From positions 1 to 40,599 of IMG/VR virus record IMGVR_UViG_2537562012_000007: 40,599 nt of DNA; one strand, 5' to 3'. The notes beneath the pieces are model-generated. The model was not told the DNA's origin. It did no database searches and was given only the letters and a program-made list of their open reading frames with translations. Positions 7,734-13,182 of this stretch are shown one piece after another (position 1 is the stretch's first letter; every line of letters starts with the position of its first letter). A program made the position numbers and the translations under genes. This DNA is from a virus (taxonomy: Duplodnaviria; Heunggongvirae; Uroviricota; Caudoviricetes).

Positions 7734-7804
7734 CTCGCAATATTCATACCGGATCACTTCCGGCAATTTGTGAGTAAAAAGATTCGGTATCAAAAGAGGT
7801 GAGT

Positions 7805-8875
7805 ATGGCTAACGCCTGGCTCAGATTATGGCATGACATGCCAAATGACCCTAAGTGGCGAACAATTGCCAGGGTGTCAGGGCAGCCAATTGCAACAGTG
7901 ATGGCAGTGTATATCCACCTCCTGGTGAGCGCGTCACGAAATGTCACGCGAGGTCACATTGATGTCACGACAGAAGATTTGGCAAGTGCGCTCGACGTGA
8001 CAGAAGAGGTAATTGATTCAATTTTGCAGACGATGCAGGGGCGGGTACTTGATGGTGATTTAATCACTGGATGGGAAAAACGCCAGGTGCTGAAAGAGGA
8101 CAACGGCAATATTTCGCAAACCGCAAAATCTCCGGCAGAGCGCAAGAGGGCGCAGCGAGAGAGGGAAAGAAAGCGGGAACAAAATGGCGATTGTCACGGC
8201 GAGTCACGAAATGTCACGCACATGTCACGACGAGTCACGACAGATAAAGATACAGATAAAGATACAGATCAAGAAGATCAAAACACTATGGTCCATGGCG
8301 TAAAAAACGCCACGAACCAGGCAGGGGATGTTCAGACCGTCACTCCTGGCCAGCCCGCAGGCACGACACCGGAAGCCGATTCAGCGTATGCGCTGAAAGC
8401 CGATTCGGGCGCTGTGCAGCAGGTGATGACCGCAAGGCAGGAGCAATCACACCAACTTCAGCAGCCTGAAGCCGATTCCGCCATTCAGCGGGAAGCCGAT
8501 CGGGTAGTCCCGGAAAACACCGGGCAGCCTGTGGGACGAGTGGATTATCCTGATGTGTTCGAACAGGTCTGGCGGGAATACCCGTTGCGTGCCGGGGCAA
8601 ACCCGAAGAAATCCGCTTTCAGTGCCTGGAAGGCCAGATTACGCGAGGGGGTGCCACCAGAGGCCATGCTGGATGGCGTGAGGCGTTACGCAAGATACTT
8701 GGCGGCTACCGGGAAAACGGGAACGGAATTTGTTCAGCGAGCGACGACGTTTTTTGGACCGGACCGGAATTTTGAGAACCCCTGGTTGCTCCCGGTAAGC
8801 GGCACGAACAACCAGCGTTGTGTGAATCATATTTCTGAACCGGATAACGAAATTCCGCCGGGCTTCAGGGGGTAA
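7805..8875 (+). CDS. Replication initiator, O-like / replisome-organiser N-terminal domain
   Basis: N-terminus MANAWLRLWHDMPNDPKWRTIARV...; the gene body contains iteron-like GTCACG repeats (see repeat features); AGAGG RBS 5 nt upstream of the ATG at 7805. Confidence 0.7.
   Translation: MANAWLRLWHDMPNDPKWRTIARVSGQPIATVMAVYIHLLVSASRNVTRGHIDVTTEDLASALDVTEEVIDSILQTMQGRVLDGDLITGWEKRQVLKEDNGNISQTAKSPAERKRAQRERERKREQNGDCHGESRNVTHMSRRVTTDKDTDKDTDQEDQNTMVHGVKNATNQAGDVQTVTPGQPAGTTPEADSAYALKADSGAVQQVMTARQEQSHQLQQPEADSAIQREADRVVPENTGQPVGRVDYPDVFEQVWREYPLRAGANPKKSAFSAWKARLREGVPPEAMLDGVRRYARYLAATGKTGTEFVQRATTFFGPDRNFENPWLLPVSGTNNQRCVNHISEPDNEIPPGFRG
7931..8006. repeat. Iteron cluster 1 inside the replication gene (GTCACGA / TGTCACG units)
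   Basis: GCGTCACGAAATGTCACGCGAGGTCACATTGATGTCACGACAGAAG ... CGACGTGACAGAAG. Confidence 0.6.
8191..8267. repeat. Iteron cluster 2 inside the replication gene, plus a GATAAAGATACA direct repeat
   Basis: TTGTCACGGCGAGTCACGAAATGTCACGCACATGTCACGACGAGTCACGACAGATAAAGATACAGATAAAGATACAGATC; the 15-mer TCACGAAATGTCACG is shared with cluster 1. Confidence 0.6.
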
Positions 8876-9371: not shown

Positions 9372-9799
9372 GCAATTGTGTAGACGCGTTGACGGTCGAA
9401 AGCATAGGAGGGTTGATTGATCGTTCTAGTTATGCTGTCAGAGCGAAAGCGCAGGAACTGGGTATCAATAGGATGTTAAGAGGGGGGGGGGGTATAACCA
9501 ATCAAAAAAACATCCGCAAAGCGATATTGAGCTAGTGCGGAAGCTTCATCAGTGTGGAGTTCCCCGCCGTGATATCGCTGTAAAACGCGAAATGTCCTTG
9601 GGCATGATTAATCAGTACGTTTATTTCGACAGGAGAGCGCATGAAGTTTGACATCTAGACAACTGGGGGAGCGCTGAAAACGTTCTTAATTGATGTTGGA
9701 TTCGCTTTACATACTGAACTGTTTGGCTGAAAGACACGGTAGTATCACCAATCAAGGTGCTTTTGATAAACGCTTGTGTGTTTGTTTTTTAATCCATTG

Positions 9800-9828
9800 T
9801 TGACAACTAGGTTAGTTTTCCATATCAT
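9800..9828 (+). promoter_or_regulatory. Sigma70-like promoter upstream of the ParA-like gene
   Basis: TTGACA (9800-9805), 17 bp spacer, TATCAT (9823-9828). Confidence 0.5.
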
Positions 9829-9858
9829 CAATAAAAGTGTAAAACTAATGGTGGCGAT

Positions 9859-10905
9859 ATGACTAGTGAATCAAATGTTAATGCTCTGATAGAGCGTCAA
9901 TTCGAAGTTGCTGACGGTAATGTAAGAAGTCTTAATTTGCCGAAATATGATAAATATACAGTATGTAATTTACGGGGAGGCATTGGTAAGACATCTTTAA
10001 CTTTTAATCTGTCATATTTGGCGGATAACGCATTAATCGTGGATACGTGCCCGCAAGGAAATTTATCATATTTTTTTGACAATAATTATGCATCTTCGTC
10101 TAGCACAACTGCAAATGACCTCTTAATGCCTTATTTTGTTCCAGGGCTTGGATTTGCAACGCGTGCTGCAAAGCTAGTATCATCAACTAATGCTTGGTTT
10201 GCGGGCAAGAATAACTATTTTATTCAATCTGATAGTCAACTTTATCTTCTACCTACGCAAATGGCGAATGCTCTGGCTCAAGCCAGAACAATTTCTGGGG
10301 CTACTCAGCAGGTTGTTATTGATACAATTCTTTTTTCTCTGAAGAAAGAAATAGCCAGAGAAATGGTTGAAACTGGTACTACAAAAGCGTTAATTGATAC
10401 ATCACCTTTTTTCTCTGGAGCGACGCATTTATCTTGGCATGCAACAGATGCTTTAATAGTTCCAGTGAGGACAGATCAGCAATCGATTAATTCATTAAGA
10501 TTACTTATTGATACTCTGACTAAACCAACATCAGAATTTAGAAAGATAATGCCGTCTGATGGCCATACACCAAAAATTCAGATGGTGGTTATTACCCATT
10601 GCGGATGGTCAACAGTGGCAGGAGCAAGGAATAAACCAAATCAACAGACAAAAATGTACATCGAAGCTGTAAGAGAGGTAATTCGACAAAATATTAGTAA
10701 TTTTACAACAGATGATCCTAATAATCACATTGTGATTCTTGATGATTTTCTGGGTAGTGGCAGAATGTCAAGTGCTAAGTCTAAACCATTAGAGTTGTTA
10801 AATCCAGGAGATGCAATGACTGTGAATAGAGTTAGGACATCCGTGAATTTATCTGTTAACAAAATAAAAAATGAATTAAAGTTCATTCACAACTCCATAT
10901 GGTAA
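9859..10905 (+). CDS. ParA/MinD-family P-loop ATPase with C-terminal extension
   Basis: Deviant Walker A CNLRGGIGKTSLT followed by DTCPQGN, as in ParA/Soj; 348 aa; markedly AT-rich codon usage by eye relative to the phage backbone. Confidence 0.75.
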   Translation: MTSESNVNALIERQFEVADGNVRSLNLPKYDKYTVCNLRGGIGKTSLTFNLSYLADNALIVDTCPQGNLSYFFDNNYASSSSTTANDLLMPYFVPGLGFATRAAKLVSSTNAWFAGKNNYFIQSDSQLYLLPTQMANALAQARTISGATQQVVIDTILFSLKKEIAREMVETGTTKALIDTSPFFSGATHLSWHATDALIVPVRTDQQSINSLRLLIDTLTKPTSEFRKIMPSDGHTPKIQMVVITHCGWSTVAGARNKPNQQTKMYIEAVREVIRQNISNFTTDDPNNHIVILDDFLGSGRMSSAKSKPLELLNPGDAMTVNRVRTSVNLSVNKIKNELKFIHNSIW

Positions 10906-11250
10906 ATGACATTTTATTTGAATAATCTGGATTGATAATCATTGTTACATTAATTGTTATTAATTCTAAATAATCCTATCGTTCTTCAGGATGAGATAAT
11001 TTATATTTATTTGTGTTGTGATTTTTTGAATTTATTTAGGTTTATGAACTGTTTTAGATGAAATGAATCATGAATACGAAATTGTTGCGGTACTGATAAC
11101 GAGGAAAGACCTCTGCGAGGTACGAATCCGAACCGGCCAGACGGAGGTCGCTGTCTTCACAGCTTACGAACCTGAGGAGTAAGAGACCAGGCGAGGGAGA
11201 AATCCCTCGCCACCTCTGATGTGTCAGGCATCCTCAACGCACCCGCACTT

Positions 11251-11273
11251 AACCCGCTTCGGCGGGGTTTTTA
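11251..11273 (+). terminator. Rho-independent terminator
   Basis: ACCCGC-TTCG-GCGGG stem-loop followed by a T-run. Confidence 0.6.
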
Positions 11274-11355
11274 TTGGTTGACAAAATTATGAATATGCAC
11301 CAATATCTTGGTTGACAAAAGTCGTTTTTTGCACGGATTAGGCGGAGAAGTGTCT

Positions 11356-11949
11356 ATGCAGAACCATCCATTCCCTTGGGAGTTCTTTCCTGAGTTAACA
11401 GAGGAGCGTTTAACCATTATAGCTGAGGAGTTGCTCAGGATACAGGATATTACTCATGAGTTATTGTCATCGCCCTATGATGATAATTACACTCGTGGTG
11501 GTTGTACATTTGGGCGTCAGCGGCAGGCGTTGCTACAAATGTGCGTACGAAAGACATATGACTGGTTAAGACTACTTAATCCTGGCATGGATCTTACGTT
11601 TTCAATTGGGAATGTCCCTATTCGTTTCTTTACTGATGACGCAGATAACCCCAAGAAACGCGGTTTTTTCAAAAGAAATGATGCTGATCGACTCTTCGAG
11701 TCAGAGGAGACTACTCCAACTATGCATCGCTTTGTGGTTGAAAAGCCTGAATTTGAAGGCGAGGGTGGTAGAGTCATTTTTAATGGCTATAACGTGTTTG
11801 GTGAGATCGTGTCAACTTGGACATATGGTGCGGACCGTGTTGTTATGCTGAACTCTGTCGATGATGTACCTCCAGCACCGGTACCTATCGAACTAGAACC
11901 TATCAGTGCGTCTAAGACTGAGAAGGAAAAGAAACAAAATAGCAAATAG
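11356..11949 (+). CDS. Hypothetical acidic protein (197 aa), accessory cassette
   Basis: ATG at 11356 with GGAG RBS; the TTG at 11308 used by the track lies inside a promoter-like repeat; no recognisable domain. Confidence 0.6.
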   Translation: MQNHPFPWEFFPELTEERLTIIAEELLRIQDITHELLSSPYDDNYTRGGCTFGRQRQALLQMCVRKTYDWLRLLNPGMDLTFSIGNVPIRFFTDDADNPKKRGFFKRNDADRLFESEETTPTMHRFVVEKPEFEGEGGRVIFNGYNVFGEIVSTWTYGADRVVMLNSVDDVPPAPVPIELEPISASKTEKEKKQNSK

Positions 11950-11959
11950 TGGGTGAAAT

Positions 11960-13081
11960 GTGTTTAACGGTACTAATTTAAGACTTGCTCGTCTGTATCA
12001 CGAGCTATCTCTGGAGCAGGTTGCTGAGAAGGTTGAAAAAACACGCCAGTATGTACAGCGACTGGAGTCTGGTTCAGCTACTCCATCCCCAGAGCTTATA
12101 AATAAATTAGCCGAGGTTTTGCGCGTGAAGCCCGCCTTTTTCGAAGGGCAGGAACATTCTCCTGTTAATGAAGAGATTGTACATTTTCGTAAACGCGCCT
12201 CGACAAGGATGTCAACGAAGCTATCAACACTCGCTAAGGCTGAGTTTTATCGTCGTTTTATTGATGTATTTGAAGATAACCTTAATTTGTCACCTGTTCG
12301 ATTTCCTGAATTTCGTGTCCATACACAAGAAGATATCGAGCGAGCGGCAGAAAAATGTCGTATTGAGTGGGGCTTAGGCTTTGGCCCAATTGAAAATATG
12401 ACTCGCCTTGCCGAGAAACTTGGGGCGTTTGTTACTTCATTTGACTCCGTTTCGGATGAAGTAGATGCACTGTCTGTTCCTCTACGAAGGCCTTTTATTG
12501 TTCGAAATACAGCTAAAAATTCACCTTGTAGGCAACGCTTTGATATTGCTCATGAGGTTGCCCATTTGATTCTTCATGAAGGAATTTCTACTGGGGATAG
12601 ATTAACTGAATCCCAGGCAAACCGTTTTGCCTCTGCTCTGTTGCTTCCCAGAACGTCGATGGCGAAATATTTTCCAAGACCTGTGGGGGGGAGGATAAAT
12701 TGGCAGGGACTAAGCCAATTTAAGTTGACATGGAAAGTAAGTAAGGCTGCCATTGTTTACAGGGCTCATCAATTAGGACTTTTGACTGATGAGCAGTACA
12801 GAACTGCATTTATGGGGTTGAAACGGAAAGGGGAAGCTATTGATGAAAAAGAAGATTATCTAATCCCTCATGAGCGTCCTGAGTTATTCCGTCGGGCTTT
12901 ATCGTTTTTATTTGAAGAGTTAGGATACGACCCACAGCGTATAGCTGATGAAATGGATATAGAAGTGGACATTTTTTATGAGTTAGTAGGAGATGATCTT
13001 CCTGCGGTTCATGAACTGCCAGGAAGTGGTGATGTTGTTTCACTACAATCTTACCGAACTCTTAGAGGCAAAATTCACTAG
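11960..13081 (+). CDS. XRE-family HTH fused to ImmA/IrrE-type zinc metallopeptidase
   Basis: N-terminal HTH (LRLARLYHELSLEQVAEKVEKTRQYVQRLESG), central HEVAHLILHE (HExxH) motif typical of ImmA/IrrE (COG2856-like); GTG start. Confidence 0.8.
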   Translation: MFNGTNLRLARLYHELSLEQVAEKVEKTRQYVQRLESGSATPSPELINKLAEVLRVKPAFFEGQEHSPVNEEIVHFRKRASTRMSTKLSTLAKAEFYRRFIDVFEDNLNLSPVRFPEFRVHTQEDIERAAEKCRIEWGLGFGPIENMTRLAEKLGAFVTSFDSVSDEVDALSVPLRRPFIVRNTAKNSPCRQRFDIAHEVAHLILHEGISTGDRLTESQANRFASALLLPRTSMAKYFPRPVGGRINWQGLSQFKLTWKVSKAAIVYRAHQLGLLTDEQYRTAFMGLKRKGEAIDEKEDYLIPHERPELFRRALSFLFEELGYDPQRIADEMDIEVDIFYELVGDDLPAVHELPGSGDVVSLQSYRTLRGKIH

Positions 13082-13085
13082 GCAT

Positions 13086-13108
13086 AACCCGCTTCGGCGG
13101 GTTTTTTG
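13086..13108 (+). terminator. Rho-independent terminator, near-identical to the one at 11251
   Basis: ACCCGC-TTCG-GCGGGT followed by TTTTTT; shares the core TAACCCGCTTCGGCGGG with 11249-11267. Confidence 0.65.
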
Positions 13109-13182
13109 TTTTACGTATTCTGGTTTACAATCTACAGGCCAGCCTGAACAACTGGCACCTGCTGCGCCAGCAGAGAAAACCG

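Follow-up and report, generated by a model that had tools for sequence, protein, structure and literature searches.

A tandem bipartite repeat at the 5' edge of the RosmerTA cassette of a lambdoid prophage: a candidate promoter-operator for the toxin–antitoxin operon

RosmerTA is an anti-phage toxin–antitoxin system (Millman et al., 2022, preprint, 10.1101/2022.05.11.491447; Ernits et al., 2023, PMC10440598), of which these papers cover the proteins and the defence phenotype. Ernits et al. suggested that it is regulated in the manner of ImmR/ImmA, with cleavage of a helix–turn–helix (HTH) protein, and described no promoter or operator (PMC10440598). Here we analyse a stretch of viral DNA of 40 599 nt (IMG/VR record IMGVR_UViG_2537562012_000007, positions 1–40 599; hereafter the window), and add to the described system a cis element: two tandem bipartite sites that immediately precede the toxin gene rmrT and the antitoxin gene rmrA and that probably serve as their promoter-operator.

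The window is a lambdoid prophage, with genes for an integrase, DicF, a cI-like repressor (HTH plus S24), Cro, YdaT, DUF977, DUF968 and RusA, and four tRNAs. All genes, sites, promoter elements and terminators discussed below for 9800–13109 lie on the + strand. The gene called gene 2 in an earlier, sequence-only reading of this DNA (11356–11949) encodes 197 amino acids (aa) and matches the PADLOC model RmrT (PDLC03929, E = 5.5e-93, covering 1–197 of 198); its product has no Pfam match. The following ‘HTH-ImmA’ gene (11960–13081, 373 aa) matches PADLOC RmrA (PDLC03943, E = 4.3e-201). The two are co-oriented, 10 bp apart, and form a two-gene operon; among 80 loci that we selected by RmrA, each from a different species, nearly all have rmrT immediately before rmrA. 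As in described RosmerTA systems, the PADLOC matches are full-length, the toxin comes first, followed by an antitoxin with an HTH and a Zn-peptidase, and the cassette is prophage-borne. Judged by these sequence matches, gene 2 and the HTH-ImmA gene are the RosmerTA toxin–antitoxin defence system.

Regulators of related construction are known. CapH is a repressor of operons for cyclic oligonucleotide-based anti-phage signalling systems (CBASS) and for other defence systems; its target is a conserved promoter element of 22 bp, and CapP cleaves the repressor (10.1101/2022.04.27.489752); CapH–CapP fusions also exist (Lau et al., preprint, 10.1101/2022.04.27.489752). RmrA likewise combines an XRE-type HTH fold with an M78 peptidase fold, as judged by Foldseek. 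However, CapH and CapP are made as separate proteins from genes that lie upstream of the operon under their control and diverge from it, and their site is upstream of the −35, whereas RmrA is one 373-aa protein, is encoded last in its putative target operon and is also the antitoxin, and the Rosmer sites overlap the predicted −35 and +1. The same two folds recur in DdrO–IrrE of Deinococcus and ImmR–ImmA of ICEBs1 (6rnz, 3dti), where a repressor is inactivated by a COG2856 protease (PMC6868357; PMC10440598); unlike RmrA, these are separate proteins and have no toxin partner. Because RmrA is a single fusion, we do not file it as a member of the two-protein CapH–CapP, DdrO–IrrE or ImmR–ImmA modules, although we liken its working to theirs.

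The DNA targets differ as well. The DdrO target is a palindrome, whereas the Rosmer copies are direct repeats. At hipBA, the XRE-type antitoxin HipB recognizes several sites, set apart from one another and overlapping the −35 and −10 of the promoter that drives it, and in this the putative RmrA sites, which are spaced and overlap the promoter core of their own operon, resemble the operators of type II toxin–antitoxin systems. HipB sites, however, have clear inverted symmetry (TATCC-N8-GGATA), and the antitoxin gene stands before the toxin gene; in Rosmer the repeats are direct, the sites bipartite and the toxin gene first.

The bipartite element and its conservation

The sequence-only reading had noted a repeat upstream of gene 2 and proposed it as an operator for the HTH-ImmA regulator. 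Checked in the window sequence, the coordinates and sequences of the repeat and its 34-bp spacing are correct: a 13-nt exact direct repeat, TTGGTTGACAAAA, occupies 11274–11286 and 11308–11320, and the 40.6-kb window has just one other local direct repeat of 12 nt or more with 100% identity. The true unit is longer than this repeat. Both copies are followed, after exactly ten variable bases, by TGCAC, which had been missed; the element is therefore bipartite, GGTTGACAAA-N10-TGCA(C), about 24 bp long and present in two tandem copies. The 8-mer GTTGACAA taken alone is not significant by its count, with three occurrences in the window against 1.68 expected and three reached in 22 of 100 shuffles, the third occurrence being at 9799–9806, upstream of gene 1. 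The unit GGTTGACAAA-N10-TGCA, by contrast, matches twice (11276–11299 and 11310–11333) where 100 shuffles gave an expectation of 0.00. Self-complementarity is seen in TTGACAA and in TGCA separately, but the 24-bp unit as a whole does not form a clear inverted repeat, and its copies all point the same way.

Unit 1, GGTTGACAAA-N10-TGCAC at 11276–11300, overlaps the core of a predicted rmrTA promoter, taking in its −35 and spacer; this promoter is formed by the −35 hexamer TTGACA (11278–11283) and, 17 bp downstream, the −10 hexamer CAATAT (11301–11306). From this −10 we would place the transcription start near 11313. Unit 2, GGTTGACAAA-N10-TGCAC at 11310–11334, would then cover the predicted +1 to +20; it has no −10 of its own, and lies upstream of the rmrT ribosome-binding site GGAG (11344–11347), which ends 8 nt before the ATG at 11356. 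In homologous cassettes unit 1 coincides with a called promoter, TTGACA-17-CATCAT or TTGACA-17-GATTAT, scoring 10/12, and unit 2 is not called.

Conservation of the element was followed in an alignment of RmrA homologues of 51–92% identity and in the 80 loci. In homologous cassettes we found the pair in 34/34 non-redundant cassettes with RmrA at least 49% identical, on the same strand and with its position kept. Its spacing is quantised, at 33–34 bp in 32 of the 34 and 31–37 bp in all, while the sequence of the spacer drifts. The hosts are Enterobacterales, Burkholderiales, Gallionella, Marinobacter and Halomonas. Cassettes with more distant RmrA (40–46% identical), from Vibrio, Thiothrix, Mesorhizobium, Caulobacter and Nitrospirae, carry two or three same-strand GGTTGACAAA-like copies at 19-bp spacing, the last of which coincides with a good −35. 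Overall, at least two copies are present in 58/71 cassettes, and none has them on the opposite strand. Ten-mers with at most two mismatches reach a density of 12.2/kb in the 150 bp upstream of these 71 cassettes, against 0.138 per kb-strand elsewhere. An alignment of 25 promoter regions leaves TTGACA and TGC as invariant columns in both units.

Three E. coli Rosmer cassettes, of 68–70% nucleotide identity, illustrate this selective conservation: TTGACAAA-N10-TGCAC is kept twice, about 34 bp apart, and the spacers differ. All three occupy a P2-prophage hotspot after the replication-endonuclease gene. The hotspot lies between the replication-endonuclease and portal genes, and diverged cassettes are found there in L001 (2501–4307), L002 (2501–4305) and L003 (2200–4016), and also in L007, L009 and L040. 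In several P2 cases unit 1 starts right behind the stop codon of the endonuclease gene, as in TAG-TTGACA. Some loci are decayed: in L012 the operator is kept and rmrT is internally deleted, and the annotation of E. coli ET650 (L002) splits rmrA into two open reading frames (ORFs), one with the HTH and one with ImmA.

The association was also approached from the DNA side. An exact dual-motif scan of 2.9 million viral contigs returned 51 contigs. In 34 of them rmrT lies 17–41 bp downstream of the pair (232 bp in one, with a partial rmrT match), and rmrA follows in 33. The remaining 17 have the exact pair with no rmrT, rmrA or RmrA-like HTH within about 7 kb on each side. A scan of the viral contigs for three GTTGACA at 19-bp spacing was uninformative: it gave five hits (four simple tandem repeats and one orphan, L160), with rmrTA in 0/5.

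RmrA as the candidate reader and the alternatives

RmrA has an XRE-type HTH at aa 7–61 (Pfam HTH_3, PF01381, 1.5e-12), with residues 29–37 as recognition helix, and an M78/ImmA–IrrE peptidase at aa 151–269 (Peptidase_M78, PF06114, 8.4e-17) with the HExxH motif H198-E199-x-x-H202; H198, E199 and H202 are invariant in the homologue alignment. An AlphaFold2 model (predicted local distance difference test score 88.4), which also gave the limits of the recognition helix, was compared with known structures by Foldseek. The closest to the HTH were the N-terminal domain of CapH (7t5u, template-modelling score 0.84), that of DdrO (6rnz), SinR, C.AhdI and the 434 repressor, and the closest to the peptidase were CapP (7t5t) and IrrE (3dti). 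A sequence search of solved structures gave only one HTH match, 9sf2.

Within the recognition helix R29, Q30, L35 and E36 are invariant in every aligned RmrA homologue, down to 33% identity, so that helix and motif are conserved together. One lineage has K29 instead, represented by Brenneria alni (L044, 1650–1810) and a metagenome relative (L159, 680–835). Its repeats have TTGACT/TTTACG, in the forms GCTTGACTnAT and GCTTTACGAT, which replace TTGACAAA in the same architecture as in R29 cassettes; an R29 sister (L158, 700–830) retains TTGACA, as GCTTGACA(A/T)A. Relatives with the K29 variant numbered none in viral contigs and five in metagenomes, of which two were usable. The change from R29 to K29 together with altered repeats is suggestive of covariation, as one event in a single lineage.

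We consider it likely, from this pattern of conservation, that the HTH of RmrA binds both units and represses its own operon. The two tandem composite sites together would form the promoter-operator of rmrT–rmrA, unit 1 carrying the predicted sigma-70 promoter and unit 2 extending over the predicted start and the first part of the leader, ahead of the ribosome-binding site. Both would most likely be bound by the N-terminal XRE-type HTH of RmrA, which probably acts as an oligomer; the bound protein would occlude the −35 in unit 1 and block the start region in unit 2, leading to self-repression of rmrTA. Repression might be relieved through the fused peptidase or through some phage trigger. Self-repression of this kind is known from classical type II antitoxins and from CapH, DdrO and ImmR, the repressors whose partners are M78 peptidases. 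The proposal of an operator for the HTH-ImmA regulator is borne out in part: at rmrTA there is a conserved putative protein-binding element (34/34 cassettes) paired with an invariant recognition helix, and the gene 1 site drops out, as described below. In kind, the element would be an ordinary autoregulatory promoter-operator; what is new is its delineation in a known defence system, and its conservation is unusually deep.

Several points weigh against repression by RmrA. No RmrA operator is described in the literature that we searched, and both binding and expression rest on prediction. The HTH and the motif are mostly co-conserved rather than co-varying. Direct repeats with no clear dyad symmetry are unusual for XRE dimers. 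The window's own −10, CAATAT, is weak, with 3/6 matches (the −35 has 6/6), and falls below the threshold of the promoter scan, which did not list the unit 1 promoter for this reason. The 17 of 51 viral contigs with the pair and no rmrA mean that another protein could recognize it. Finally, orphan rmrA genes persist in decayed loci of Photorhabdus (L014, L016 and L017), where rmrT is deleted or replaced and the operator pair is lost.

The possibility that a protein other than RmrA, be it a host factor, RmrT or a phage protein, binds the pair draws its strength from those 17 contigs, in which the pair is constrained at the DNA level, and from RmrT itself, which has no known fold or function. We nevertheless hold it to be rather unlikely. 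The motif tracks rmrTA through Gamma-, Beta- and Alphaproteobacteria, Geobacter and Nitrospirae, and through P2, lambdoid and chromosomal contexts, and over such a breadth of hosts and contexts no one host factor suggests itself. RmrA contains the only DNA-binding domain of the cassette, with its recognition helix invariant, and the K29 lineage has an altered motif. Moreover, the search around the phage sites spanned about 7 kb per side, and rmrA may be elsewhere in the host or phage.

A second alternative, that the repeats are promoter sequence and nothing else (a tandem pair of −35 boxes serving rmrT, a third box serving gene 1, and no part for a regulator), takes up the caveat of the sequence-only reading that TTGACA is also the −35 consensus. 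The caveat is correct for unit 1, whose TTGACA doubles as the −35 and which behaves as TTGACA-17-CAnnAT; the gene 1 copy, too, is a plain promoter with 11/12 matches. However, the hexamer 17 bp past TTGACA conserves A and T at its second and sixth positions in unit 1 (‘A..AT’ in its logo) and not in unit 2. There a −10-like hexamer occurs in 0/32 cassettes, and the place for one, 17 bp downstream, reaches into the ribosome-binding site, so that promoter function cannot explain unit 2. Tandem promoters were rejected on the same ground. In addition, sigma-70 does not need the GG, the AAA and the TGCA box 10 bp further on that are also conserved, distant cassettes have additional copies at about −54 and −73, and the pair occurs inside phage ORFs with no −10 following. 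We therefore regard a promoter with no regulator as distinctly unlikely.

Other explanations for unit 2 and for the motif were tried and dropped. An N-terminal extension of rmrT through unit 2, from the in-frame TTG at 11308 (LVDKSRFLH), is not conserved, L002 having an in-frame TGA, and the PADLOC RmrT model starts at the ATG at 11356 and not at the upstream TTG. By eye, the motif recalls an NtrC half-site (TGCACCA), the sigma-54 −24/−12 elements, LexA, FNR/CRP boxes and a 434-type ACAA-N6-TTGT operator; each was set aside for a misfit of spacing or symmetry.

The sequence-only reading had also joined to the regulon the site at the promoter of gene 1, which encodes a ParA/AAA_31-like ATPase (9859–10905; Pfam AAA_31, 8.4e-10), an accessory gene or moron. 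RmrA would then co-regulate gene 1 through the GTTGACAA at 9799–9806, as part of a three-gene cassette. The TTGTTGACAAC reported at 9797–9807 is indeed present, the 8-mer core is exact, and gene 1 is found in E. coli only beside Rosmer (14/14). Yet only 14 complete E. coli genomes carry it, and these count as one lineage because all are at least 99% identical. Rosmer occurs with no gene 1 in 15 other E. coli genomes (nine near-identical, six diverged); the annotation of four of these loci, three diverged and one near-identical, was inspected for a ParA-like gene, and none has one. The site matches in the 8-mer only: it has no TGCA at N10 and no second copy, and at the density given above about 11 ten-mers with up to two mismatches are expected in the window. 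It falls in a sigma-70 promoter, TTGACA-17-TATCAT (9800–9828), that matches at 11/12 positions. Between gene 1 and rmrT, furthermore, stand a truncated hokD remnant and a terminator. Co-regulation of gene 1 is thus very improbable, and neither its place in the regulon nor the three-gene cassette holds up. Comparison of these loci indicates that gene 1 is a separate insertion outside the Rosmer cassette, its site being only the −35 in the promoter of this unrelated gene. Apart from this, gene 1 has only weak PADLOC matches and a strong promoter of its own, and could be a single-gene accessory or defence candidate.

Least probable, and scarcely to be credited, is that unit 2 acts as RNA, a structured or protein-bound 5' leader controlling rmrT translation: its predicted position in the transcript, between the likely +1 and the ribosome-binding site, would allow this, but the leader fold (−14.8 kcal/mol) is no more stable than those of shuffles (z −0.23), no Rfam family matches in the region, unit 1 repeats the sequence though predicted to be untranscribed, and distant cassettes carry copies upstream of the −35.

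The hokD remnant and the borders of the cassette

The hokD remnant, with the hok 3' region and terminator, spans 11063–11272 and includes a 39-codon frame at 11063–11182 (Pfam HOK_GEF, 2.8e-16). In L004, one of the E. coli Rosmer loci with no gene 1, hokD is intact and different genes precede it. Set against L004 (2254–2500), the 5' end of hokD in this prophage lineage (window 11063–11272) is truncated by the insertion of gene 1; in related prophages an intact hokD directly precedes the Rosmer cassette. The gene model of the locus is thereby corrected, the ParA-like gene and the hokD remnant being separate insertions.

Homology to a Rosmer-free hokD locus ends in the T-run of the terminator, at about 11272 (Megablast covers window 11081–11275), so that the Rosmer cassette begins essentially at the first GGTTGACAAA. 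It is closed by an intrinsic terminator at 13086–13109, a near copy of the hokD terminator at 11253–11272. Near-identical terminators, TAACCCGCTTCGGCGGG(G)TTTTT, thus flank the cassette (window 11250–11272 and 13086–13109), and the downstream one, taken with GTTTT, is a match for the terminator of hokD in L154, a prophage that has no Rosmer. The duplication suggests that the cassette may have been acquired by recombination at the hokD terminator. A simple insertion model could not be shown; the downstream flank differs from the Rosmer-free locus.

Elsewhere in the window, just after Cro and YdaT, a 358-aa ORF (7799–8875) with no Pfam match contains clustered short direct repeats, two copies each of TGTCACGNCGAGTCACGA, ACAGATAAAGAT and CAGCNNGAAGCCGAT, at 8192–8263 and 8462–8500. 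By analogy with lambda O, these may be origin iterons within a replication-initiator gene.

Phage-borne pairs and the significance of the element

Most of the 17 contigs with an orphan pair, 14 in number, are of high GC content (L086, L088, L091, L092, L094, L102, L103, L106, L114, L119, L121, L128, L130 and L133). They have a 33-bp period and the beta-proteobacterial form of the motif, GGTTGACAAA-N10-TGCAAG; L102 has three copies. Examples of orphan pairs are at L094 10691–10747 and L089 5312–5367, with others in L126 and L120. The high-GC pairs lie inside ORFs of unrelated hypothetical proteins, where they read as (L/V)VDKxxx(L/M)Q repeats, and no −10 follows them. The rmrT frame of the window, open up to the TTG at 11308 (window 11308–11358), is the same frame as that of these VDK repeats. 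Neither Pfam nor PHROG assigns a family to the ORFs that host the pair, annotated phage genomes gave no match to them, and homologous phage proteins that lack the pair have an ELEARKPLP linker instead. In two low-GC P2-like contigs the pair is intergenic and adjoins the replication-endonuclease gene.

A codon-degenerate scan (GTN GAY AAR N9 YTN CAR, twice) separates the DNA sequence from the peptide that it encodes. It returned only five contigs, all five with the exact DNA motif, built from AT-ending codons in phages of 54–67% GC. Because only the exact DNA version was returned, the constraint is on the DNA and not on the peptide.

RosmerTA is a validated anti-phage system whose regulation and trigger are not described in the literature that we searched. 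The element reported here gives it a concrete cis component, a pair of 24-bp sites that open the cassette at its 5' edge, with the RmrA HTH (R29/Q30) as candidate reader, and its conservation across several phyla is unusually deep for an operator. It defines a minimal native promoter for cloning or transplanting Rosmer, and a handle for reporter and titration work. As for the phage-borne copies, the RmrA operator pair may be a free-standing DNA signal outside Rosmer. If they are bound by RmrA or by a protein of the same specificity, such sites could serve as triggers, or as decoys titrating the antitoxin-repressor while the phage replicates; we offer this as a speculation, itself doubtful. Were it true, activation of Rosmer would be linked to the recognition of an invader DNA sequence, and the phage-borne pairs, if RmrA-bound, would bear on how Rosmer senses infection.

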